DNA of 37,726 bases. It comes from Planctomycetota bacterium. GTDB lineage: Bacteria > Planctomycetota > UBA11346. Below, in pieces: positions 6,471 to 29,310 of this stretch; position 1 is the stretch's first letter, and each line of letters starts with the position of its first letter. The stretch spans positions 1 to 37,726 of the forward strand of contig JAFLCQ010000005.1 of NCBI GenBank assembly GCA_017302815.1, read 5' to 3'. Under the pieces are notes generated by a model. That model worked only from the letters and a program-made list of their open reading frames with translations, was not told the DNA's origin and did not search any database. Made by a program: the position numbers and the translations under genes.

Positions 6471-7187
6471 TCAAGCCCCAGGCTGCAGTCGTGGGAACAA
6501 CAGATTGTTCTCCAGATGCATGTGCTCCATCAGATCGGCCTCGAAACCCTCAAGACGCAGGTGCAGGGCGTTAATCGGTCGGTCTGGATCGTTGGGTAAT
6601 GGGTAGGCGAAGCGACGCAGGGTGCGGTAGTCCTCACACCAATCACGGAAGGCGACCAGTCGATGGTCATGGCCCTCGTGCTCATCGCGCAAACGCCTGA
6701 TCAGTGCAGCCAATCCAGCGGTCTCGCCAGCAGCGATGGGTGGGAACAGATCGCGCTCCTCCATCTCCAGGTGGTGGTAGGTCTCGGCCATGAAGGTGGG
6801 GAATGCCGCCGCCAGTTCGCGGAGCACCGGGCGCCTCTCGCCTTGGGTCACGGCCAACTCCGTGATCATCGCCGAGAGTTCGGGGAGATCACGGCGATGG
6901 GCCTCGTGGAAGGTCAGGATATGGGCAACCAGTTCCGGGGTCGATTTGGCGGCCCAATTGGGGCCCGTCGGAGCCGATGCCGCTTCGTCAGCGATCTCTT
7001 CGAGAAAGGCGATCGGGTCAGCACCGACCTCCGCACAGTGGTTGCCGAGGCTCATCAACCCCTTGCAGCACCAGTCCATGCGATTGCGGGTGAACACCCG
7101 CGCCGCACCAGGGATGGCCGAGGCGATAATGAAGGCCGGAGTGTCTCGGGTGATCACCAGGTTGTTGATGGTAGCGAGCGTGGTCAT
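6471..7187 (-). CDS. RIC/YtfE/ScdA (NorA/DnrN)-type di-iron protein, copy 1
   Basis: ScdA_N-like N-terminus with the DWCCKG Cys pair, then a hemerythrin-like domain (HEAHRRDLPEL, HLEMEERDLFP, DEHEGHDH, MEHMHLENNLLFPR). Start set at MTTLATINN to match copy 2. Confidence 0.85.
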   Translation of the reverse strand: MTTLATINNLVITRDTPAFIIASAIPGAARVFTRNRMDWCCKGLMSLGNHCAEVGADPIAFLEEIADEAASAPTGPNWAAKSTPELVAHILTFHEAHRRDLPELSAMITELAVTQGERRPVLRELAAAFPTFMAETYHHLEMEERDLFPPIAAGETAGLAALIRRLRDEHEGHDHRLVAFRDWCEDYRTLRRFAYPLPNDPDRPINALHLRLEGFEADLMEHMHLENNLLFPRLQPGA

Positions 7188-7243
7188 GGGTGTTCCGGGC
7201 CAGGGTGCTGGCGGCAGCATAGCCACCGCCAGCACCCCTACAC

Positions 7244-14555: not shown

Positions 14556-15272
14556 TCAGGCCACTGGCACCAGTCGCGGGAAGAGCAGGTTGTTCTCCAG
14601 GTGCATGTGCTCCATGAGGTCGGCCTCGAAGGCTTCTAGGCGCATGTGAAGCGTGTTGATTGGCCGATCGGGGTCGTTGGGCAATGGATAGGCGAAACGC
14701 CGCAGAGTGCGGTAATCCTCGCACCAATCACGAAATGCGACCAATCGATGATCATGTCCCTCGTGCTCGTCGCGCAGACGCTTGAGCAACGGAGTGAGTG
14801 ATGCCGTTTCGCCTGCGGCGATGGGAGGGAAGAGATCCTTCTCCTCCAATTCGAGATGGCGGTAAGTCTCCGCCATGAACGCCGGCCATGCCGCAGCCAG
14901 GTCGCGGAGGGCAGGCCGACACTCGCCCTGTTCGGTGCTCAGCGCGGCGATCATCGTCGCCAACTCTGGCAGATCCCGGCGGTGAGCCTCGTGGAAGGTG
15001 AGAATGTGGGCGATCAATTCGGGAGTCGGTTTAGCTGCCCAGTTCGGGCCAGCCGGGGCCGATGCCGCCTCGTCCGCCACTTCCTTGAGGAAGACAAGCG
15101 GGTCAGCACCAACCTCAGCGCAGTGGTCGCCGAGTCGCATCAACCCCTTGCAGCACCAGTCCATGCGATTGCGGGTAAAGACCTTGGCTGCCCCAGGGAT
15201 GGCCGAGGCGATGATGTACGCCGGGGTGTCGATAGTGATGGCAAGCCCGCTGATGGTGGCGAGGGTCGGCAT
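14556..15272 (-). CDS. RIC/YtfE/ScdA (NorA/DnrN)-type di-iron protein, copy 2
   Basis: 238 aa, roughly 80% identical by eye to copy 1. Same DWCCKG and hemerythrin His/Glu motifs. The DNA differs at many synonymous sites. Confidence 0.85.
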   Translation of the reverse strand: MPTLATISGLAITIDTPAYIIASAIPGAAKVFTRNRMDWCCKGLMRLGDHCAEVGADPLVFLKEVADEAASAPAGPNWAAKPTPELIAHILTFHEAHRRDLPELATMIAALSTEQGECRPALRDLAAAWPAFMAETYRHLELEEKDLFPPIAAGETASLTPLLKRLRDEHEGHDHRLVAFRDWCEDYRTLRRFAYPLPNDPDRPINTLHMRLEAFEADLMEHMHLENNLLFPRLVPVA

Positions 15273-15868: not shown

Positions 15869-17443
15869 TCAGGCCGATGACTGGCGATCAACCCGCTCGA
15901 CGCCGCCATGGCGGAGGTAGAACCACCAGACCAACGCGAGGCAGATGCTGTAGTAGGCCGCAAAGCCGAAGAAGGCGCGCTCCGGGGTGTGTGCCGCAAT
16001 GTGCTGGCCGAGGATCTTCGGGATCACGAAGGCACCATAGGCGGCAATGGCGGAGATCCAACCCAGCACGGCGCCAGCAAGCTGGGCGGGGACGATGAAG
16101 GGGACGATACGGAAGTTCGCCCCCATGCTGAGACCCGAGCAGATGAACAGTACGATCACGGTGACAAGAAAGGGCGGGAACCACGACAAACGGTCAGCGC
16201 TCGCCAGCGCTATCGGCAGCATGATTGCCAGGGCGATGACGGCTGCCAGCATCACCAAGCCGGCAGCGCAGGTGACCCGTGCACCGCCCACGCGATCGGA
16301 CAGCCAGCCGCCGACGGCGCGCATCAGCGAACCCACCAGTGGGCCGATCCAAGCGTAATGGAACGGGTTGGGAGCTCCGACCAGCGGAACGCCATCCGCT
16401 CCGCTCGAGAAGATGTCCTGGATGAATTTGGGGAACGAGGCGCTGAAGCCGATGAACGAACCGAAGGACATGGTGTAGACCAGCGTCATGATCCAGGTGT
16501 GCCGGTTCGGGAAGATGGCGAACTGGCGCTGCAAATTCGCCCGGACCGCCGCCGGGGTGCCGTAGCGCATCGCGAGCAGCGCGAACACGGTGGCCAGCGG
16601 CAGCACGATGAGCCAATGCAGTCCGAGGCCGATGAGCAGGTACAACCCAGCGCCAGCGGCGACAAGGCTGATCAGCACGACCCAGGTAGCCCGAAGGAAA
16701 GCTGGCAACTGCGCCGTCCGGGTGTGCGGCGGCAAGGTGCTCGCACCGAACCAGGCGATGAGGCCGCAGACGAGGCAGAGCGGGACCCACATCAGGGTAC
16801 TGTTCTGGATCCACAGCGGCGAACCGATGGCGCGACCGCCGGCCGGCACGACGAGCGGCAAGGGCGGACCAGTCAGCGCACCGAGCACGGCGCAACCGGC
16901 TACCACGGGTACAGTGAACTGCATCAGACTGACGCCGAGGTTGCCGATGCCGGCGTTGACCCCCAGCGCCATCCCCTGCATGCGCTTCGGGAAGAACCCC
17001 GAGATGTTCGCCATCGACGAGGCGAAGACGGCGCCGCCCTGCCCGGAGAGCATGGCGAGCACGCAGAACGTCGTGTACGGGGTCTCCCGGTCACGCAGCG
17101 CCAGACCGGTCAGCAGCGCCGGGACGGCCAGCAGCAGGGTCGAGGCGGCCATCACCAGCCGACCACCGGCGATGCCGAGCAGGAAGCTGTGCGACAGACG
17201 CATCATAGCGCCAGACAGGCCGGCGATGGCCGGGAGCTGGTAGAGTTGGGCCTTGCTGAAGGGGAACCCAACCTGCTCCATCTGCACGATCAGCACCGAC
17301 CAGACCATCCAGGTGGCGAAACCCAGCAGCAGGCAGGACATGCTGATGAGCAGGTTGCGGCAGGCCGTCCGCTGTCCGCCATCCTGCCAGCACCCGGCGC
17401 ACTCGGGATCCCAACCGTCGAGCGTCCGCGTCGTCCCGACCAT
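15869..17443 (-). CDS. narK: MFS nitrate/nitrite transporter NarK
   Basis: RNLLISMSCLLLGFATWMVWS, 12+ TMs, start 3 nt after the narI stop. Confidence 0.9.
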   Translation of the reverse strand: MVGTTRTLDGWDPECAGCWQDGGQRTACRNLLISMSCLLLGFATWMVWSVLIVQMEQVGFPFSKAQLYQLPAIAGLSGAMMRLSHSFLLGIAGGRLVMAASTLLLAVPALLTGLALRDRETPYTTFCVLAMLSGQGGAVFASSMANISGFFPKRMQGMALGVNAGIGNLGVSLMQFTVPVVAGCAVLGALTGPPLPLVVPAGGRAIGSPLWIQNSTLMWVPLCLVCGLIAWFGASTLPPHTRTAQLPAFLRATWVVLISLVAAGAGLYLLIGLGLHWLIVLPLATVFALLAMRYGTPAAVRANLQRQFAIFPNRHTWIMTLVYTMSFGSFIGFSASFPKFIQDIFSSGADGVPLVGAPNPFHYAWIGPLVGSLMRAVGGWLSDRVGGARVTCAAGLVMLAAVIALAIMLPIALASADRLSWFPPFLVTVIVLFICSGLSMGANFRIVPFIVPAQLAGAVLGWISAIAAYGAFVIPKILGQHIAAHTPERAFFGFAAYYSICLALVWWFYLRHGGVERVDRQSSA

Positions 17444-17446
17444 CGT

Positions 17447-18175
17447 TCACGACCTGGCTTGGGTCCGGGTAGTCGCCCGGCCGCTGGTCCGCACCAGACG
17501 CCGATCGGCATACCAGCGCTGGTGCTGCTGCTTCCAGAAGGCGTAGCTGAACGGGGCGACCAGGAGGTGGACCAGGCGGGTGAACGGAAAGATGATGATC
17601 AGCAGCCACGCGCCGAGCACATGCGCGAGGACCAGATCCGGCATGGCGGCCACGGCTCCGGCATCCGGGCTGAGGGTGACCAGCGACCACAGGTAAGGCG
17701 CCATCACCGCGGCGTACCACGAACTGCCCCAGGGATACCACAAGGCGATGGCGATGCCGGTGAGGATCTGCCCAGCCAGCAGCGCCAGCAGGATGACGTC
17801 CATCCGGCTGGTCACGACGCGGACCCGGGGGTGGAAGATGCGCCTGGAGATGTAGCCGGCGATGCCGGCGAGAGCGAGCAGGCCGCCGACTAAGGCGGTG
17901 ATTTCCAGGATCGCTAGGCGATACGGATCAGCATTCCAGGCCAGGATCTGCCCGGGCACCAGGAAAGCGACAAGGTGGCCGCCGAGGACCAGCAATACAC
18001 CCCAGTGGAAGGCGAGCGAGGCCCAGAACTGGTGGTGGTTCTCCAGGAACTGCGTCGACAGGGCCGAATAGGTGAAGGGCAGACGCCGGTAGCGCCAGAT
18101 CGACGCGCCGACCAGCGTGGCCACGGCGACATAGGGCAGCACGACAAGGAGGGCGAAGGCGAGATGATCGTTCAT
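17447..18175 (-). CDS. narI: Respiratory nitrate reductase gamma subunit (cytochrome b)
   Basis: MNDHLAFALLVVLPYVAVATLVGASIWRYRR..., 5 TMs with conserved His residues, overlaps the narJ stop. Confidence 0.95.
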   Translation of the reverse strand: MNDHLAFALLVVLPYVAVATLVGASIWRYRRLPFTYSALSTQFLENHHQFWASLAFHWGVLLVLGGHLVAFLVPGQILAWNADPYRLAILEITALVGGLLALAGIAGYISRRIFHPRVRVVTSRMDVILLALLAGQILTGIAIALWYPWGSSWYAAVMAPYLWSLVTLSPDAGAVAAMPDLVLAHVLGAWLLIIIFPFTRLVHLLVAPFSYAFWKQQHQRWYADRRLVRTSGRATTRTQARS

Positions 18176-20236: not shown

Positions 20237-23200
20237 TCACCAGTTCACGCCCGGCAGCTTGCGCACCAGGATGTGGGTGTCGCGGTTGCAACCGATCGGC
20301 CCCCAATAGTTGAAGTGGTAGGTGAACTGGCCGTAGCCGCCGAACAGGAGATTCGGCTTCATGCGCGTCCGGGTCAGCGAATTATTCATACCTGCCCGCT
20401 TGTTCCCACGGCCGGGCGACAGCGGCACGCCGACGGTGCGCTCGGTGGCATGGTAGATGATGCACACCCCGCGGGGTATGCGGGCTGAGATATTGGCCCT
20501 AGTGACGACGACACCGTGATCGTTGGTGACCTCGACCCAGTCGTTGTCAGCGATGTCGAGTTCGCGCGCGTCCTCCTCGCTCAACCAGAACGGATCGATG
20601 CCGCGCGAGAGGGTTGTCATACGCTGATTGTCGCCGTAGGTCGAATGGATGTGCCATTTGCCATGCGGCGTCAGCAGGTTGAGCATCTTGGTCTGCCCGC
20701 CCTCCTTGGAGAAGGCGAGGTCAGCGTACTGCGTCGGGATCGGACGCGGCTTGTAGGTCGGCACGTGCTCGCCGAACTGGATGTAGCCAGGGTGATCAAG
20801 GTAGAAGTGCTGCCGTCCGGTCAGGGTTCGCCAGGGGACGCCAGTCTCGACATTGTAGGTGAACGGGGCATATGGCCGGCCATTTTCCGTCAGCCCCGAC
20901 CACATCGGACTGTTGAGCAGGCGCATCGGCTTCGCCTGCAGATCCTTGTAGGTAACGCGGACGTTGCGCGACTTCTCGGCGAGGTGGACGAGGGGGACAC
21001 CGGTGCGTTCCTCCATGTCGCGGTAGGAGCGATAGGCCAGCTCGCCGTTGGTCACCGTCGCGCAGCGCAGGATGACATCGCACACCAGTTCATCTTCGGC
21101 CAGGGACGGATACGATTTGCCGTCGAAGCGGTACGGAGGCTTCTCGCGCAGGATACGATCGTACTCATCCTCAATGCCATAGTGCGTCCCGTGCGCGCCG
21201 AGGCCGTTGGCGCGGGCCAGCGGTCCGAACGAGCAGTACTGGTTGAAGACGTTGGCGTAGTCGCGGGTGACGACGCGGAATCCCGGCATGGTCTTGCCGG
21301 GGATCGCCTCGCACTCGCCGGTCTTCCAGTCGAGCATCGCGGCCTGGCTAATCTCGGCCGGAGAATCATGGGCCAGCGGCGTGGCGACGACGTCACGCAC
21401 GGGCTGTGGGAACTCGCGGGCCGAGATGGCCGAGAAGCTGCGGGCGATACCCTTGAAAATCTGCCAGTCGCTCTTCGATTCCCAGCATGGCGGCACTGCC
21501 GCCGACAACGGGTGGATGAAGCTGTGCATGTCGGTCGAGTTGAGATCGGCCTTCTCGTACCACGAGGCTGCCGGCAGGACGATGTCGCTGTACATCGCCG
21601 AGGTGTCCATGCGGAAGTTCAGATCGACGACCAGGTCCATCTTGCCAGTGGGAGCCTTCTCGTGCCACACCACCTCCTTGGCCTGGTCCTTGGCGAAGTC
21701 GTCGCTGGCGACAGCGTTGGTGTGCGTGCCGAGGTAGTGCTTGAGAAAGTATTCGTGACCCTTGGCGCTGGTGCCGATGGCATTGCCGCGCCAGATGATC
21801 CACACCCGCGGCCAGTTCGCCTCGGCATCCGGATCCTCGACCGAGAAGCGTAGCGATCCATCTTTCAGCCGACGCACCACCTCGCCTACCACCGCCTCGG
21901 GGGTGGTCGCGCCGGCGGCCTCGGCCTCCTTGACCACATCCAGCGGGTTGCTGGCGAACTGCGGATAGAACGGCATCCAGCCGCTGCGTACCGCCCGCAC
22001 CTGCAGGTCCATGGTGTGGCCGTGCGCCAGGCTGCCGGGCGGCTGGTGGCTGGGGACGGTATGGTAGTCGGTGAACGACTTTTCGTAGCGCCACTGGTCG
22101 GTGTTGACGTAGTGCCAGCTGGTGCCGTTCTGCAGGCGCGAGGCCGGCACCCAGTCCTTGGCGAAGGCGATCGCGCCCCAGGACTCGCCGGGCGCAAGCT
22201 TCTCCTGGCCGACGTAGTGGGCCAGGCCGCCGCCATTGACGCCGACGCAGCCGGTAAACATCAGCGCATGCATGCCGGCCCGGTACATCAGGTTCGCATG
22301 GTACCAGTGGTTGATCCCCGCGCCGATGATGATCGTGCACTTGCCGCCAGTCAGCTCGGCGGTCCGGCCCCATTCGCGGGCGAAGCGGATGACCGCCTTG
22401 CGGTCCATGCCGGTGAGCCGTTCGCTCCAGGCCGGGGTGTATGGAGCCTCGGCGTCGTCGTACGAGGTGGGATAGGCGCCACCCAGGCCGCGTTCGACGC
22501 CATACTGCGCCATCAACACATCGTAGACTGTGGCGACCGTGATCTCGCGTCCGTCGGCCCCCTGCAACCGGCGGACCGGAACGCCGCGCAGGCGCTCCTG
22601 GCCGGCGGCGAAGTCGTTGAAGACGGTAGCGACGACGCCATCATTGCGCCCGACGAAGGTGAGTACCGGGTCGATGGCGCTGCCATCGGCGAGGTCCTTC
22701 AGCTGGAGATTCCAGCGCCCCTTCTCCTTCGCCCAGCGCGTACCCACCGCGCCGTGCGGCACGCGGACAGCATCGCTCGCCGCATCCCACATCAGGAACT
22801 GCCAGTCCGGGTTCTCGATAGCGGCATAACGGTCACCGGCGAGACGGTTCGGACGCAGCAGCTGGCCCGGACGCCACGAGTCGCCGGAGGCGGTCAGCTC
22901 GACGAGGAACGGCGCGTCGGTGAACCGCTTGGTGTAGTCGAGGAAGGCTGGGACTTGGCGGGCGTGGTGGAACTCGCTGAGCAGGACATGAACCACCGCC
23001 ATCCACCAGGCGCCATCCTGGCCGGCGTGGATCGGGACCCATTCATCGGCGAACTTCGCGACCTGGTTGAAGTCGGGCGAGAATACCCACATCTTCGAGC
23101 CGTTGTGCCGCGCCTCGGCGGCGAAGTGGCAGTCGGGCGTGCGTGTCATGTTCAGGTTCGCGCCCATCACCGCGAGCAGCTTGGCGTTGAACCAGTCGGC

Positions 23201-23890
23201 CGACTCATGCACGTCGGTCTGCTCGCCCCAGGTCTCGGGCGAGGCCGAGGGCAGGTCGCAGTACCAGTCGTAGAAGGAGAGGGAGATGCCACCGACCAGT
23301 TGCATCAGCCGCGCTCCGGCGGCATAGCTGATCATCGACATGGCCGGGATGGGCGAGAAGCCGGCGATGCGGTCGGGGCCGTGCTTCTTGGCCGTATGAA
23401 CCATCGATGCAGCGATGATCTCGTTGGCCGTGTCCCAGTCGCAACGGCGGAATCCACCCTTGCCGCGGGCCTGCTGCCAACTGCTGCGGGCAGCCGGGTC
23501 GCCGACCAGGGCTGCCCAGGCCCGAACCGGATCGCCATGGCGCTCACGCGCTGTTCTCCACAAATCGAGAAGAGCCCCCCGGATGTAGGGATAGCGAACG
23601 CGCAACGGCGAGTACAGATACCACGAGTAGCTGATGCCGCGCTGGCAGCCGCGCGGCTCGTACGGCGGGATGGCCGAATCGAGCGTCGGATAATCAAGCG
23701 CCTGCATTTCCCAGGTCACGATCCCGTTCTTGACGTAGATGTTCCATGAGCACGAGCCAGTGCAGTTGACACCATGCGTGCTGCGCACGACCTTGTCGTG
23801 CTGCCAGCGGTTGCGGTAGAACTCTTCCCAGCTGCGCAGCTTCGGATCGTCGTGATCCTTGATCCACTCGTGGGCGGTACGATGCGTCAT
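20237..23890 (-). CDS. narG: Respiratory nitrate reductase alpha subunit (Mo-bisMGD)
   Basis: [39 protein letters not shown] (the FS0 H/Cys motif), ~1217 aa. Start chosen at MTHRTAHEW (GAGG SD 5-8 nt upstream) rather than the ATG at 23935. Confidence 0.97.
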
Positions 23891-23906
23891 GCGACCTCGG
23901 ACAGGT

Positions 23907-25196
23907 TCAGGAACGGTTGGAGCGGGTAATGGCATCTGGGCGAATCGGCTTGAGCGACGCGCGGACCGAATCGACGCGCCGATGCCAGATCAAGTTGAAT
24001 ACGGCCATCACGGCTGCAGCGATGGCGAAGGCGACGATAAAGAACATGCCAGCGCGCGAAAACCGCTCGATGAACTGTTTGAAGGTGGCATGTGGGCCTT
24101 CGGACGTCGCCAGCCAGGCGGCCAAGTCCCGTGCCTCGCCACCCTGGAGCGGATGGGCGGCGAAGAGATCGCGCATCACCGGGGTCGGCGGGGATGCCAG
24201 CCAGGCGGCGAGGCCAGCCTCACCACCCAGACGACCGCCGATGGCGGTGAGATCGGGACCCAGGGACCCGCCGCCGCCAGGGACGGGCAGACCGGCCACG
24301 GCATGACAGGAAACGCAGGATGCACCATGCTTGCCCATGGCGACGCGTCCGGTGAACAGCGACAGACCACGCGCCGGATCGCCTGGCGCCTGCACCTCGG
24401 GTGTGGTCGCCGACACGCTGCGGATATGGTCGAGGATGGCGACAGCCTTGGCCTCATCCATGCCGGTACCGGGCATGACGACGTTGCCATATTCCTTGAG
24501 CATCGCTTGGGCTTCGACGTCCCCGGAATCGAGCACTTTCTTGGGATCGACAATGAAGCGGATCAGCCAATCGCGCTGCCGCCGCTCCTCGACGCCGCGC
24601 AGGTCGGGCCCCAGGCGCCGGCCCTGGCCGATGCTGTGGCAGGCGGCACAAGCCTGCGTGAATAAGGCCTCACCCGTGTCGGCCGCCATCACGGCGCCCG
24701 CGCTCAGCAGGAGCAGGAGGACGGCGGCCGAGGCCGACGATCGCCCCTTGCCAGATGAACGGGGCCGCGGCTTCCTGACGTAGAGGGACCGGGATGGATG
24801 GTTGGTGATGTCGGCGAGCGTCATGGTTTCCAGGAAGTCGAGGTAGGCCCGGTGCACCGCACGCCAGGCATGGTGCGCCGAGCACGGGCGGTCGTCGCGG
24901 CAGGCCACTTGGCGGTTCACCAGGCAGTGCGGTTGGCAGTCGCCGCCATCCAAGGCGATGAACACGGCCTTCAGCCGGATGTCGCGCGCCGGCCGGGCCA
25001 GGCGGTAGCCGCCACCCACGCCGCGCACGGCCTCGACGATGCCGGCCTTGCCGAGCGTCCACAGGATCTTCGACATGTAATTCGCAGGTATGTCGCAATC
25101 CTCCGCCAGTTCATGTCCTTGCTGCAGCTGTCCTGCCGGCCATTCGGCCAGCGCGGCCAGGGCGCGCAGCGCATACTTGATCGTCGACGAGACCAT
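23907..25196 (-). CDS. In-frame fusion: a full Rrf2-family (NsrR/IscR-like) wHTH domain, a signal-anchor TM, a periplasmic diheme cytochrome c (NarC-like) and a C-terminal TM
   Basis: N-terminus [17 protein letters not shown]...GGGYRLARP...C-x3-C-x7-C-x5-C...TLADITNHP. Linker [14 protein letters not shown]. Hydrophobic segment [15 protein letters not shown]. Two heme-c motifs, CAACH and CVSCH, with Met ligand candidates. C-terminal [23 protein letters not shown] plus a basic tail. There is no in-frame stop, and no ATG/GTG/TTG between the Rrf2 end and the hydrophobic core. Confidence 0.75.
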
Positions 25197-25354
25197 GTGC
25201 ACGATACTTCATGCGTACGTGATCAATCGCACGGCGTCAACGCAACCGTGCATGAAATCAACGACATTTACAGTAATTTGTACGCAGCCACATGGGACAT
25301 CAGAACTTAGAATGCGGATCGCTCGATCCACATTGCCGTGACCTGGAGTCGGCC

Positions 25355-25683
25355 TCAGCCGCCGAATGCTGCCATAGTCGCGTGACGACTGAATGCAGGT
25401 GGAGGCGATTTTCCACGCACCGCATACCGGATACGGCGATGGACTTCCTCAAGGTGGCCATCGCGCAATGGCGTGAGCAGATCGTGGCCGCTCTCATCGA
25501 ACAGACAGGTGTGCAGGCGGCCAGGAGAGATCAGCTCGCCGCCCCTGCGACGGCGACCACGGCAGAGATCAGATCCTGAAGTTCCTCGCTGGTCGCTGAC
25601 CCGGGGCGCAGATCTGCCTGCTCTGGCAGCCAGTAGGTGCAGCGCAGGTTGCACTGCTAGGCCAGCGCGACGCGCAGATACAT
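25355..25683 (-). pseudogene. moaA: Relic of GTP 3',8-cyclase MoaA, with an in-frame TAG, a frameshift and a large internal deletion
   Basis: Minus strand reads MYLRVALA*QCNLRCTYWLPEQ...SEELQDLISAV (the MoaA radical-SAM CNxRCxYC region, with the third Cys lost). It then shifts frame to GGELISP-GRLHTCLFDESGHDLLTPLRDGHLEEVHRRIRYAVRGK...MAAFGG*, which is the MoaA C-terminal region including the terminal Gly-Gly. Confidence 0.6.
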
Positions 25684-25690
25684 GGCCTTA

Positions 25691-26095
25691 TCACCGCTGT
25701 GGCATGCAGGACGCTAGCAGGTCGCGTATGGTGGTCTGACGCAGGCGGTGATCAGCGTCCTGGCGCACACCGCTCAGCAATCGATTGACGGCACAGGCGA
25801 GCGCGGGATGACCGAGTTGGCAGGCGCTGCAGGTGGTGAGCCGACCATCGGTCTCGGTGGCCTGCAGGATGTCGTGCACGGTGACCCGCTCGGGCGGGCG
25901 GGAGAGTCGGTAGCCGCCCTTGAAGCCGCGATGGGAGACGAGGAGGCCGGCATCCACCAGCATCTGGAGCACTTTGCTCATGTAGCCGGATGCGACGCCC
26001 GAGGCGATGGCGATATCACGTTTGCTGCACCATTCGCCGGACTTGGCGATGTGCATCACGGCCCGTACGGCGTACTGGCTGGTCAGACCGAACAT
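25691..26095 (-). CDS. Rrf2-family transcriptional regulator (paralog 2)
   Basis: MFGLTSQYAVRAVMHIA...SGYMSKVLQMLVDAGLLVSHRGFKGGYRLSRP. Cys motif C-x2-C-x8-C. Confidence 0.85.
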   Translation of the reverse strand: MFGLTSQYAVRAVMHIAKSGEWCSKRDIAIASGVASGYMSKVLQMLVDAGLLVSHRGFKGGYRLSRPPERVTVHDILQATETDGRLTTCSACQLGHPALACAVNRLLSGVRQDADHRLRQTTIRDLLASCMPQR

Positions 26096-26255
26096 GCAGC
26101 CATCCTGTTCAGCGTCGTTCCATGATGGCCCACTGTGCGGGACGAGTTGGCATGTTCAATGTGGATGCGCAGGTACACATTGCCGAGCAGCGGTTGACTG
26201 GTGGTCGCGGACTGTGCATCGTTACGAGTTCATCCCCTGCCAGCAAGGGCGCGAC

Positions 26256-27110: not shown

Positions 27111-27752
27111 ATGCCCAGCTGCCATGCCCATCTCCCTCCGCTCGACCTGGAGCGCCTGAGCGCAGTCAGCGTTCTGCACGGCGAACACCGCATCATCTTG
27201 CGTCTGCTCGACTGCCTCGACCTCATGGCCGAGCGTGCTGCCAAAGCGCATGCCATGCCGGTTCTAGAGGCACGTGACGTCATCGCCGTGCTGCGCGGCT
27301 TCGCGGACGAGTGCCATCATGCCAAGGAGGAGCGAATCCTGTTCCCGGCGCTCGAACGCCTGGCTCCGGGCTTCGGTCCGGTGCAGGTCATGCGTCATGA
27401 GCACGACCTGGGCCGCGACCATGTCCGCGGCATGGCCATCGCCGTGGACGCGGTCGATGTAGCAGGCTTCGTCCAGGACGCGCAGGCCTTCAGCGGGCTG
27501 CTGCGGCAGCATATCGACAAGGAGAACGAAGTGCTCTTCCCCATGGCGCAGGCCATGCTCTCAGCTGAAGACGATGCCGCCATCCTGAACGCCTACCGTG
27601 AGGCTGGTCGCGAACGTCCGTGCGGCCCCCTGCTGGCCCGGGTCGATAGCCTCGCCGGCACCTACGGATTCGCCTCCATCGGTGAGTCACCAGAGTGCAC
27701 GCCACGCCACGCCTTGTGCGGATGCGGATCCGGATCTGGTATCTGCCGATGA
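27111..27752 (+). CDS. Hemerythrin-domain protein with an N-terminal MPSCH and a C-terminal Cys-rich tail
   Basis: LHGEHRIIL, ECHHAKEERILFPALE, VMRHEHDLGRD, HIDKENEVLFPMA. Tail is CGCGSGSGIC. Paralog of 36348-36995. Confidence 0.8.
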   Translation: MPSCHAHLPPLDLERLSAVSVLHGEHRIILRLLDCLDLMAERAAKAHAMPVLEARDVIAVLRGFADECHHAKEERILFPALERLAPGFGPVQVMRHEHDLGRDHVRGMAIAVDAVDVAGFVQDAQAFSGLLRQHIDKENEVLFPMAQAMLSAEDDAAILNAYREAGRERPCGPLLARVDSLAGTYGFASIGESPECTPRHALCGCGSGSGICR

Positions 27753-28417
27753 CGGAACTGCTCGACATGACTGTCGGCGATGTAGCTCTCCGGTTGCCAG
27801 GAGCGAACCGGGTGCTCTGGCGCCACGGCATCGCCTATGGCAGCTGGGGCCAGCGCACCCTTCGGGACTCGTGCCAACATCTCGGCGTCGATCTACAACT
27901 GATCGAGCGAGATATCGACAGCGCCGCCGATCCGCTCGCCATCCGTTGGCAGGCAATGGAGACGGCAGATCTCGTGCGCGTGATGCAGGTGCGCTATCAC
28001 GAGCCGTTGCTGGGCGAACTAGACCGCCTGACCCGCCAAGCTCGAACAACGGCCATTGCCGATCGGGGACAGCATCCGATCCTGATGATCATCGCGCCGC
28101 TGGTTGCCCGTCTCGCCATTGAACTGGCAGACCGGATCAACCACGAAGAGCGGACCGTGTTCCCAGCCATCCTCGCCAAGACCGCTGTTCCCGTCGTGCC
28201 ACAGGCGACTCCAACCGATGTGCAAGCGATACCTGGACAACTGCTTGATGATATCCGTACCCTGACCGGTGGCTACGTGTACCGGGGTACGGATGGCGAT
28301 ACCGGCATCCGCCCACTGTACCTCGGCCTGCAGATGCTGGACATGGACATCCAGGAGCACCTGCACGTCGAGAACCACCTGCTGTTCCCACGGGCCCGCT
28401 CACAGGGACAGGCGTGA
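27749..28417 (+). CDS. RIC/YtfE-like di-iron protein lacking the N-terminal Cys pair
   Basis: ScdA_N-like N-terminus VGDVALRLPGANRVLWRHGIAYGSWGQRTL (SW replaces CC). C-terminus HEERTVFPAI and DIQEHLHVENHLLFPRA. ATGA overlap with the upstream gene. Confidence 0.7.
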   Translation: MTELLDMTVGDVALRLPGANRVLWRHGIAYGSWGQRTLRDSCQHLGVDLQLIERDIDSAADPLAIRWQAMETADLVRVMQVRYHEPLLGELDRLTRQARTTAIADRGQHPILMIIAPLVARLAIELADRINHEERTVFPAILAKTAVPVVPQATPTDVQAIPGQLLDDIRTLTGGYVYRGTDGDTGIRPLYLGLQMLDMDIQEHLHVENHLLFPRARSQGQA

Positions 28418-28902: not shown

Positions 28903-29310
28903 ATGATCACCTTGTCTGCTCGTTACGCCATCAAGGCCGTGATGCATCTGGCTCGTATCGACGGTTGGGTCGGAGCTGAGGAACTCGCCAGGAGCACTGG
29001 AATACCCTGCGGGTACCTCGCGAAGGTCCTGCAGCGGCTTACCATGGTGGACATTCTGCGAACTCAACGTGGCATTGGTGGCGGATATCGCCTGCTACGC
29101 GAGGCCAGCACGATTTCCCTCTGGGATATCGTCCAAGCCATCGACCGTCCCGCTGCTGGCCACACCTGCCATTCATGTGCCAACTGCCTGGGTTGCGGCG
29201 CCGATCAGGTCCTTGCTGCGATCGAAGCTGATGTGGTGCGTTCGCTCCGCGCCCATGACATCGGCACGATGGTCGCGATGTGCCGAGATCACGCCACGAA
29301 TCGCCCGTGA
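28903..29310 (+). CDS. Rrf2-family transcriptional regulator (paralog 3)
   Basis: MITLSARYAIKAVMHLA...CGYLAKVLQRLTMVDILRTQRGIGGGYRLLRE. Cys motif C-x2-C-x2-C-x2-C. Confidence 0.85.
   Translation: MITLSARYAIKAVMHLARIDGWVGAEELARSTGIPCGYLAKVLQRLTMVDILRTQRGIGGGYRLLREASTISLWDIVQAIDRPAAGHTCHSCANCLGCGADQVLAAIEADVVRSLRAHDIGTMVAMCRDHATNRP

Follow-up and report, generated by a model that had tools for sequence, protein, structure and literature searches.

An Rrf2-family regulator and a NarC-type diheme cytochrome c encoded by one reading frame at the head of a nitrate reductase operon

Does a soluble iron-sulfur (Fe-S) transcription regulator still function if a signal peptide follows it in the same chain? 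The question is raised by the first gene of a nar (respiratory nitrate reductase) operon in a 37,726-nucleotide stretch of DNA (contig JAFLCQ010000005.1 of assembly GCA_017302815.1, positions 1 to 37,726), referred to as the window herein, where a single reading frame joins an Rrf2-family DNA-binding domain to an exported diheme cytochrome c of the NarC type. Regulation of Nar is understood mainly from the proteobacterial FNR and NarXL systems and from DnrST of Thermus. The locus described here points to a different and widespread Nar module, in which an Rrf2 protein with a Cys3His motif is the first, coupled gene of narC-narGHJI operons in several phyla. Its fused form amounts to a natural experiment, since the cell is obliged to make a transcription factor and an exported cytochrome in a 1:1 ratio. 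In the literature that we searched, we found no description of an Rrf2-cytochrome c fusion or of membrane-bound Rrf2 proteins, nor of a pairing of rrf2 with narC. Both domains and the NarC-type operon were already known; the fused architecture and the rrf2-narC pairing are, as far as we found, newly recognized here.

One frame, two complete domains

A single minus-strand frame runs from 25196 to 23907, as claimed in an earlier note on this DNA and as seen again in the open reading frame list and in the sequence. Residue numbers refer to the 429-residue product counted from the ATG at 25196. The parts of the gene are as follows.

23907..25196, minus strand: whole fusion coding sequence, 429 residues plus stop, first gene of the operon; Pfam domains Rrf2 and Cytochrom_C; full-length homologues P0001-P0005 and P0021
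24792..25196, minus strand: Rrf2 winged-helix DNA-binding and dimerisation domain, residues 1-135, assigned by PF02082, rrf2_super, matches to Rrf2 structures in the PDB, predicted secondary structure and selection (dN/dS 0.06-0.17, see below)
24735..24791, minus strand: basic, probably disordered linker, residues 136-154, frame kept among relatives
24684..24734, minus strand: internal segment resembling the h- and c-regions of a signal peptide, residues 155-171, assigned by alignment with NarC signal peptides and a hydropathy peak
23910..24683, minus strand: mature NarC-type diheme cytochrome c, residues 172-429, assigned by homology to Thermus thermophilus NarC and selection (dN/dS 0.09-0.21)

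Pfam placed Rrf2 at residues 3-132 with an E value of 1.2e-31, and the match spans nearly the whole profile (positions 2-131 of 132), in agreement with the earlier description of a complete N-terminal domain. Cytochrom_C was placed at residues 173-261 (E 6.6e-13). A GTG two codons 5′ of the ATG, at 25202, could serve as an alternative start; homology with the stand-alone partner proteins, which begin MLSxT..., favors the ATG at 25196 as the real one. We also examined a model from AlphaFold2 (AF2), which was built on a shallow alignment (mean predicted local distance difference test score, pLDDT, 68; predicted template modeling score 0.34) and was used for secondary structure alone. Its secondary structure was in keeping with an Rrf2 fold, with disorder at residues 142-158 and a helix at 158-182; the cytochrome part was largely helical, and a long helix lay at the C terminus. 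The junction itself has the composition that had been noticed before, a basic stretch followed by a hydrophobic segment with an AxA-like site: residues 136-154 hold seven Lys/Arg and no Asp/Glu, with pLDDT below 50 at 142-158, and residues 155-171 are free of charged residues, with the hydropathy peak at 158-167.

The fusion is kept in distant relatives

Five full-length relatives (P0001-P0005, 429-436 residues) came from a search of 5.8 billion proteins; all have Rrf2 and cytochrome c domains, and their identities to the window protein are 94, 89, 83, 80-81 and 68-70%. The most distant fusion, P0021, was added by an exhaustive HMMER search against 1.84 billion cluster representatives. This protein of 430 residues is 49% identical over residues 2-416 (46-49% across the comparisons), and its gene lies at L083:8001-9293. 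Altogether, fusions were found on at least 10 independent contigs (L001, L002, L083-L090 and L092, from ENA, Logan, NCBI and JGI samples), each with narG 16 nt downstream and with narHJI-narK after it where the contig reaches. This disposes of the case, allowed for in the earlier note, that all homologous loci consist of two genes.

Pairwise Nei-Gojobori ratios of nonsynonymous to synonymous substitution (dN/dS) lay at 0.06-0.17 in the Rrf2 domain and at 0.09-0.21 in the cytochrome. Constraint is weaker in the linker, with ratios of 0.27-0.9 and indels of whole codons that keep the frame; synonymous sites were saturated in the comparison with P0021. These data bear directly on whether the fusion is an assembly or sequencing artefact, or a very recent and functionless stop-loss or pseudogene fusion. 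The window is a metagenome-type contig, and single-base errors can erase stop codons. Because the same fusion recurs on independent contigs at 46-94% identity, with both halves under purifying selection and with linker indels that preserve the frame, we consider this explanation excluded for practical purposes. In a neighbor-joining tree without bootstrap, the Rrf2 domains of three fusions (the window, P0005 and P0021) form one clade, which points to one ancient fusion event in the lineage of the window. Taken together, the comparisons show a genuine and evolutionarily maintained fusion, in which the stop codon would have been lost once, long ago. The earlier suggestion of a recent stop-loss fusion of an nsrR-like gene with narC is therefore borne out as to its origin from a gene pair but not as to its age, the clade reaching down to 46-49% identity with saturated synonymous sites.

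The fused architecture is nevertheless rare in the collections searched, where it comprises one clade and one independent case. Only the P0004 and P0021 clusters were fused among the best 150 matches in the 1.84 billion representatives, which rules out a widespread Rrf2-cytochrome architecture, and a scan of JGI metagenomes gave one additional fusion, which is partial. One further true fusion, L011 in an Elusimicrobia metagenome-assembled genome (MAG), is placed elsewhere in the Rrf2 tree and by that placement appears to be an independent event. Annotation pipelines may label such a gene "c-type cytochrome" or "Rrf2 regulator" alone, and half of the protein is then lost from view.

The relatives also bear on whether the cytochrome part could be made separately. 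The earlier note had argued that it could not, there being no start codon ahead of the hydrophobic core. Our codon scan agrees for the interval from residue 125 to residue 169, where no in-frame ATG, GTG or TTG occurs, but the argument overlooks the codon of Met125:

24822..24824, minus strand: in-frame ATG (Met125) found by the codon scan, inside the last Rrf2 helix; sole candidate internal start for a separate pre-NarC

Initiation here would give pre-NarC with a 47-residue signal peptide, and the full-length chain would be a minor product or mainly the source of Rrf2. The codon is ATG in the window, L001, L090 and L087, and a weak GGAA lies four nt upstream of it. Conservation of Met125 can, however, be explained by the Rrf2 fold, as it lies in the region of the conserved TLADI motif; there is no strong ribosome-binding site, and full-length chains would be made anyway. 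Moreover, P0021 has Arg at this position and no ATG, GTG or TTG ahead of its hydrophobic core, which rules out a conserved internal start as the general mechanism. Internal initiation is thus an improbable account of the window gene.

A two-gene ancestor in many phyla

To place the fusion among orthologous loci, we surveyed one genome per GTDB species with a pattern for the first-heme region and kept the best 80 loci. The cytochrome homologue lies directly upstream of narG in 79 of the 80, and narH comes next wherever the contig continues. The loci come from Planctomycetota, Acidobacteriota, Chloroflexota, Ignavibacteria, Marinimicrobia, Nitrospirota, Myxococcota and Actinomycetota, among other phyla, so that narC-narGH is a widespread operon type. 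At the one remaining locus (L073:5908-10921), narH comes directly after the NarC homologue, then narI and a narK-like gene, and narG is not matched in between.

An rrf2 gene stands directly upstream of narC on the same strand at 26 of the 80 loci, and its product is 28-54% identical to the fused domain, consistently above the value for the window's neighboring stand-alone Rrf2. The question of one gene or two, raised in the earlier note, is answered by mostly two tightly coupled genes elsewhere. For instance, stop and start codons adjoin as TAA-ATG in L009 and as TAG-ATG in L035, and they overlap as ATGA in L046 and L081 and as TGATG in L021 and L066. The other gaps are mostly no longer than about 25 nt, with about 90 to 600 nt in L013, L039 and L059. 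Such pairs can pass for fusions, as tblastn matched residues 1-415 in about 27 genomes, but all of these except L011 turned out to carry two adjacent open reading frames. The window fusion, which is specific to its lineage, thus derives from a conserved, translationally coupled pair that heads the nar operon and in which rrf2 is a regulator gene dedicated to that operon.

Of the 26 two-gene loci, 16 have rrf2 and narC in one frame and split by stop codon(s) alone, so that loss of a single stop would give the architecture of the window; chance predicts one third. The excess may be meaningless, as the loci are not phylogenetically independent, or it may reflect repeated fusion and fission, or read-through. 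The two-gene operons (from Planctomycetota, Acidobacteriota, Ignavibacteria/Chlorobi, Marinimicrobia and Methylomirabilis MAGs) share with the window the Rrf2 subfamily, NarC, gene order and strand. They differ in making two polypeptides, NarC being translated from a start codon of its own and bearing a signal peptide at its N terminus.

The C-termini of the stand-alone Rrf2 proteins are often rich in Lys and Arg (L004, L005, L012, L026, L035, L039 and L046), with tails such as KTKKKAKIIL and RRARKRTSS...RRRAGGRTATRSN. Because these tails resemble the linker of the fusion, the linker may stem from an Rrf2 basic tail rather than from the n-region of a signal peptide.

The cytochrome half is a NarC homologue

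By BLASTP, T. thermophilus NarC is 37% identical to the cytochrome half over 213 residues (E 2e-22), and a tblastn search of plasmids matched the "c-type cytochrome" gene directly upstream of narG on T. thermophilus megaplasmids (L091). Homology to an experimentally studied protein and the position of the gene thus both uphold the NarC-like assignment proposed earlier. The features that define this half are as follows.

24636-24650, minus strand: heme 1, CAACH, C183/C186/H187, CXXCH invariant among homologues
24303-24317, minus strand: heme 2, CVSCH, C294/C297/H298, CXXCH invariant among homologues
about 23985-24047, minus strand: C-terminal membrane helix, about residues 384-404, hydropathy peak at 387-399, followed by a basic tail

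Both heme motifs had been noted, each with a candidate Met ligand downstream, and among homologues Met241 is nearly invariant and Met341 invariant. The C-terminal hydrophobic helix and its basic tail were likewise found where described. The protein therefore has the two CXXCH motifs, export signal and C-terminal membrane anchor of a NarC, and its gene is immediately upstream of narG as the first structural gene of the operon.

In Thermus, the periplasmic diheme cytochrome NarC is bound to the membrane and needed for active Nar. NarG depends on it for maturation and for attachment to the membrane; NarC also interacts with NarI and has been proposed to hand electrons to Nir and Nor (PMC7694296). 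Its layout matches that of the window protein, with a signal peptide ahead of two CXXCH motifs and, at the C terminus, a helix and a basic tail, and its gene is likewise directly upstream of narG. It is, however, a stand-alone protein of 262 residues, whereas the window protein has 171 extra residues at its N terminus. The Thermus operon, narCGHJIKT, also differs in its control, which is exerted by DnrS/DnrT and not by an Rrf2 protein; the dnrST-type regulator genes lie divergently, upstream of narC, on the T. thermophilus megaplasmids.

The other long matches in the HMMER search were NarC-like proteins with added heme domains and no Rrf2 fusion: P0022-P0029, P0031, P0033, P0039 and P0041 have one or two additional cytochrome c domains of class I at the N terminus, giving tri- or tetra-heme proteins of 386-569 residues. 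P0109 has a Rieske-like C-terminal extension and P0165 a cupredoxin-like N-terminal region.

The Rrf2 half has a putative Fe-S ligand motif

Membership of the fused domain in the Rrf2 family is clear, at 110 bits against a cut-off of 30 for Pfam PF02082 and 105 bits against 73.3 for NCBIfam rrf2_super (TIGR00738). Its relatives in the PDB include 7zpn, 6y45/6hsd (RsrR), 4hf0 (IscR) and 5n07 (NsrR). Scores against the equivalog models fell far below each cut-off, at 60.4 bits against 182 for NsrR (NF008240), 63.7 against 207.55 and 44.4 against 275 for IscR (TIGR02010 and NF008110) and 53 against 193 for RirA. Orthology with NsrR or IscR is ruled out by these cut-offs, and the name "NsrR-like" used in the earlier note finds no support at the family level.

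Cys87, Cys91, Cys99 and Cys105 form the C-x3-C-x7-C-x5-C pattern reported before, to which Cys34 can be added. Cys87 is confined to the window clade. The motif common to the partner Rrf2 proteins is C91-x(6-7)-C99-x5-C105-x2-H108 in window numbering:

24873..24926, minus strand: putative Fe-S ligand motif Cys91-x7-Cys99-x5-Cys105-x2-His108, shared by almost every narC-linked Rrf2 protein of 26 genomes

Three Cys and a fourth candidate ligand, in the loop before the dimerisation helix, are thus conserved in the window clade and in nearly all partners, as in Fe-S Rrf2 proteins. Three Cys and a His with C-x2-H is also the ligand pattern of IscR-type [2Fe-2S] binding, which makes it a lead toward a putative cluster here. 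Like the Fe-S regulators IscR, NsrR, RsrR and RirA, the fused domain is a full-length Rrf2, with three Cys and a His as in the IscR ligand set; it differs from these regulators in the first Cys spacing, which is x7 where theirs is x5, and in being fused to an exported protein, whereas they are soluble. The helix-turn-helix region is the most conserved part of the fusion protein.

Candidate operators upstream

Two elements stand out in the DNA ahead of the fusion gene.

25197..25240, minus strand: 44-nt block TTGACG...CACGTACGCATGAAGTATCGTGCAC directly 5′ of the start codon, unique in the window; candidate promoter/operator
25311..25334, no strand assigned: palindrome AATGTGGAT-N6-ATCCACATT, an inverted repeat 115-138 nt upstream of the fusion start

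The 3′ 27-30 nt of the block are identical in the window, L001, L090 and L087 despite a coding dS above 1. The palindrome is conserved in L001, L087 and L090. Its second copy, at 26158-26181, falls in the divergent promoter region that separates the stand-alone rrf2 gene at 25691-26095 from a hemerythrin-like gene, and this copy too is conserved in relatives; two copies in the window compare with 0.01 expected. A promoter/terminator consensus scan gave no match in 23800-26200.

A shared element, TTGAC-N~17-TATA-yTTsTTCATCnACArGTCAAnA-ATG, precedes rrf2 in two-gene loci from Planctomycetota, Acidobacteriota, Ignavibacteria and one unclassified MAG. Examples in the range L003-L081 are L007:5940-6003, L066:150-219 and L076:5940-6003. 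In some Acidobacteriota the element forms a perfect ACTTGT-N6-ACAAGT dyad. Exact matches to TTCATNNANANGTCAA were confined to 6 of 97 loci, one copy each, always just before rrf2. Its placement suggests that this cross-phylum element is likely the operator of this Rrf2 subfamily, overlapping the promoter and serving autoregulation. P0021 retains the layout.

Cleaved polyprotein or tethered regulator

c-Type cytochromes are exported unfolded by the Sec system and receive their heme in the periplasm, and the fused cytochrome follows a segment with the build of a signal peptide. Residues 155-171 align with the signal peptides that begin the stand-alone NarC proteins. The build is the classical one: the n-region is basic, the hydrophobic core spans 8-10 residues, and the Ser/Gly/Pro c-region has small residues at -3 and -1. 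In all fusions the c-region ends in VMA, AMA, MMA or ASA followed by A/V-D, where stand-alone NarC proteins have AxA followed by Q(E/D). The predicted signal-peptidase site of the window protein lies between Ala171 and Ala172 (SAGAVMA-AD).

Precedent for such an arrangement exists in Bradyrhizobium, where FbcH, the cytochrome b-c1 precursor, is a respiratory polyprotein split by cleavage after membrane insertion. By its sequence features the window protein has what an FbcH-like precursor would need, an internal n-h-c signal with small -3/-1 residues that is conserved among relatives, and in both a c-type cytochrome follows the internal signal. The upstream partner differs, being the membrane cytochrome b of the same complex in FbcH and a soluble DNA-binding regulator here. 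As the segment is orthologous to a cleavable NarC signal peptide and has kept its AxA site, cleavage is favored. We therefore lean, with modest confidence, toward a Sec-exported polyprotein that would be cut at the AxA site into a normal NarC and an Rrf2 autoregulator.

According to this model, the 429-residue product would be synthesized as a single chain, whose Rrf2 domain would be kept in the cytoplasm by the basic linker under the positive-inside rule. Residues 155-171, the former NarC signal peptide, would engage the signal recognition particle and Sec and export the apocytochrome, and signal peptidase I would cut after Ala171 (VMA-AD). What follows would be ordinary for mature NarC, namely heme loading in the periplasm, anchoring by the C-terminal helix and assembly with NarI and NarGH. 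The Rrf2 fragment, made 1:1 and bearing a signal-peptide remnant, would be freed by signal-peptide proteases or be retained at the membrane. Through Cys91, Cys99, Cys105 and His108, it could exert Fe-S-based autoregulation in response to O2, nitric oxide (NO) or redox state at the conserved promoter-proximal element. The polyprotein would thereby do the same job as the two-gene version, and, if cleaved, it would be a rare bacterial case of an internal signal peptide that resolves a polyprotein.

Several observations weigh against this model. P0021 has Gly for Cys91 and Tyr for Cys99; it retains Cys105 and His108 and has gained several His, so that in its branch the cluster would be either gone or differently ligated. 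Fe-S sensing is accordingly not universal in the fused clade. The promoter block of the window clade differs from the cross-phylum element, which makes autoregulation at that element an extrapolation here, and with three Rrf2 paralogues in the window the upstream sites are attributable to any of them. The lineage of the fusion is probably Planctomycetota, on the basis of NarG, NarH and NorB falling into 90%-identity clusters with proteins of one MAG labelled Planctomycetota bacterium. If cleavage restores the two-gene state, neutrality is the only obvious reason for the long retention of the fusion. Lastly, the hydrophobic stretch of about 17 residues could also be an uncleaved signal anchor.

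The last of these points leads to a different outcome, in which an uncut, bifunctional protein is tethered to the membrane. An Rrf2 dimer anchored via residues 155-171 would be part of NarC or of NarCGHI and would control the nar promoter from the membrane in the style of ToxR, with periplasmic heme or redox state, or assembly of the enzyme, as possible input. The N-in, periplasmic, C-in topology put forward in the earlier note fits this arrangement, the charge distribution being coherent with it, and AF2 draws one long helix over residues 158-182. A fusion kept by selection for so long is also more than a mere polyprotein requires, and the basic C-terminal tails of the stand-alone Rrf2 partners would suit a role close to membrane or DNA. 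Set against these points are a hydrophobic core that is short, the orthology of the segment to a cleavable signal peptide, the AxA site and helix-breaking c-region present in all fusions, and the function of the same two proteins as separate polypeptides in more than 25 lineages. Membrane-spanning regulators of transcription are found widely, although the survey that documents them mentions no Rrf2 member (PMC10269533). The window protein would share with ToxR-type regulators a cytoplasmic N-terminal DNA-binding domain, a membrane pass and a periplasmic domain, but its DNA-binding fold is different and its periplasmic part is an enzyme subunit with its own anchor. On balance we regard tethering as possible but unlikely; if it occurs, the protein would represent a new class of membrane-tethered regulator.

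A related and doubtful proposal is that the activity of Rrf2 depends on membrane events, whether it is tethered to NarC or NarCGHI and senses periplasmic heme or assembly, or is freed by sequential proteolysis. In the latter version, signal peptidase may cut first and a signal-peptide protease or site-2 protease may then set Rrf2 free. Release begun by signal peptidase in this way is seen with RsiV of Bacillus subtilis. If the proposal is true, transcription of nar would be coupled to whether the cytochrome subunit of the enzyme had been successfully exported and assembled, and Rrf2 would be an export-coupled, proteolytically released Fe-S transcription factor, of which we have met no description in the Rrf2 family. 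Barring such tethered or export-coupled readings, the locus probably does not embody a new signaling principle.

The operon and its surroundings

Downstream of the fusion gene the operon continues with the genes below.

20237..23890, minus strand: narG, by Pfam and synteny with L001 and L083
18701-20194, minus strand: narH, by Pfam
between narH and narI, minus strand: narJ, by Pfam
17447-18175, minus strand: narI, by Pfam
15869-17443, minus strand: narK, by Pfam

We counted 16 nt between the fusion stop and narG, within one base of the 17 nt given earlier, and this spacer contains GAGG. Judged by homologues and by how the gene is called in L001 and L083, narG really starts at 23890, and its product has 1217 residues. 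The mechanical open reading frame instead begins at an ATG at 23935 and overlaps the 3′ end of the fusion gene (window 23891-23935); that start is ruled out by the homologues.

Two more Rrf2 genes lie nearby, both with a distinct Cys pattern and with scores under the NsrR and IscR equivalog cut-offs.

25691-26095, minus strand: stand-alone Rrf2 paralogue
28903-29310, plus strand: third Rrf2 paralogue

Three Rrf2 regulators thus occur within 5 kb, and the stand-alone pair flanks hemerythrin, ScdA, DUF1858 and DUF438-PAS genes. Other genes of the window encode CydAB, an HPP protein, a CLC channel, a DUF1858 protein, a DUF438-hemerythrin-PAS protein, NDH-2, a radical SAM protein and a quinol-type NorB. 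By its gene content, the window is a denitrification and nitrosative-stress island. Three ScdA_N/hemerythrin (YtfE-like) paralogues lie at 6471-7235, 14556-15272 and 27695-28417, and with at least three further hemerythrin-domain genes in the window they form an unusually dense di-iron set around nar and nor.

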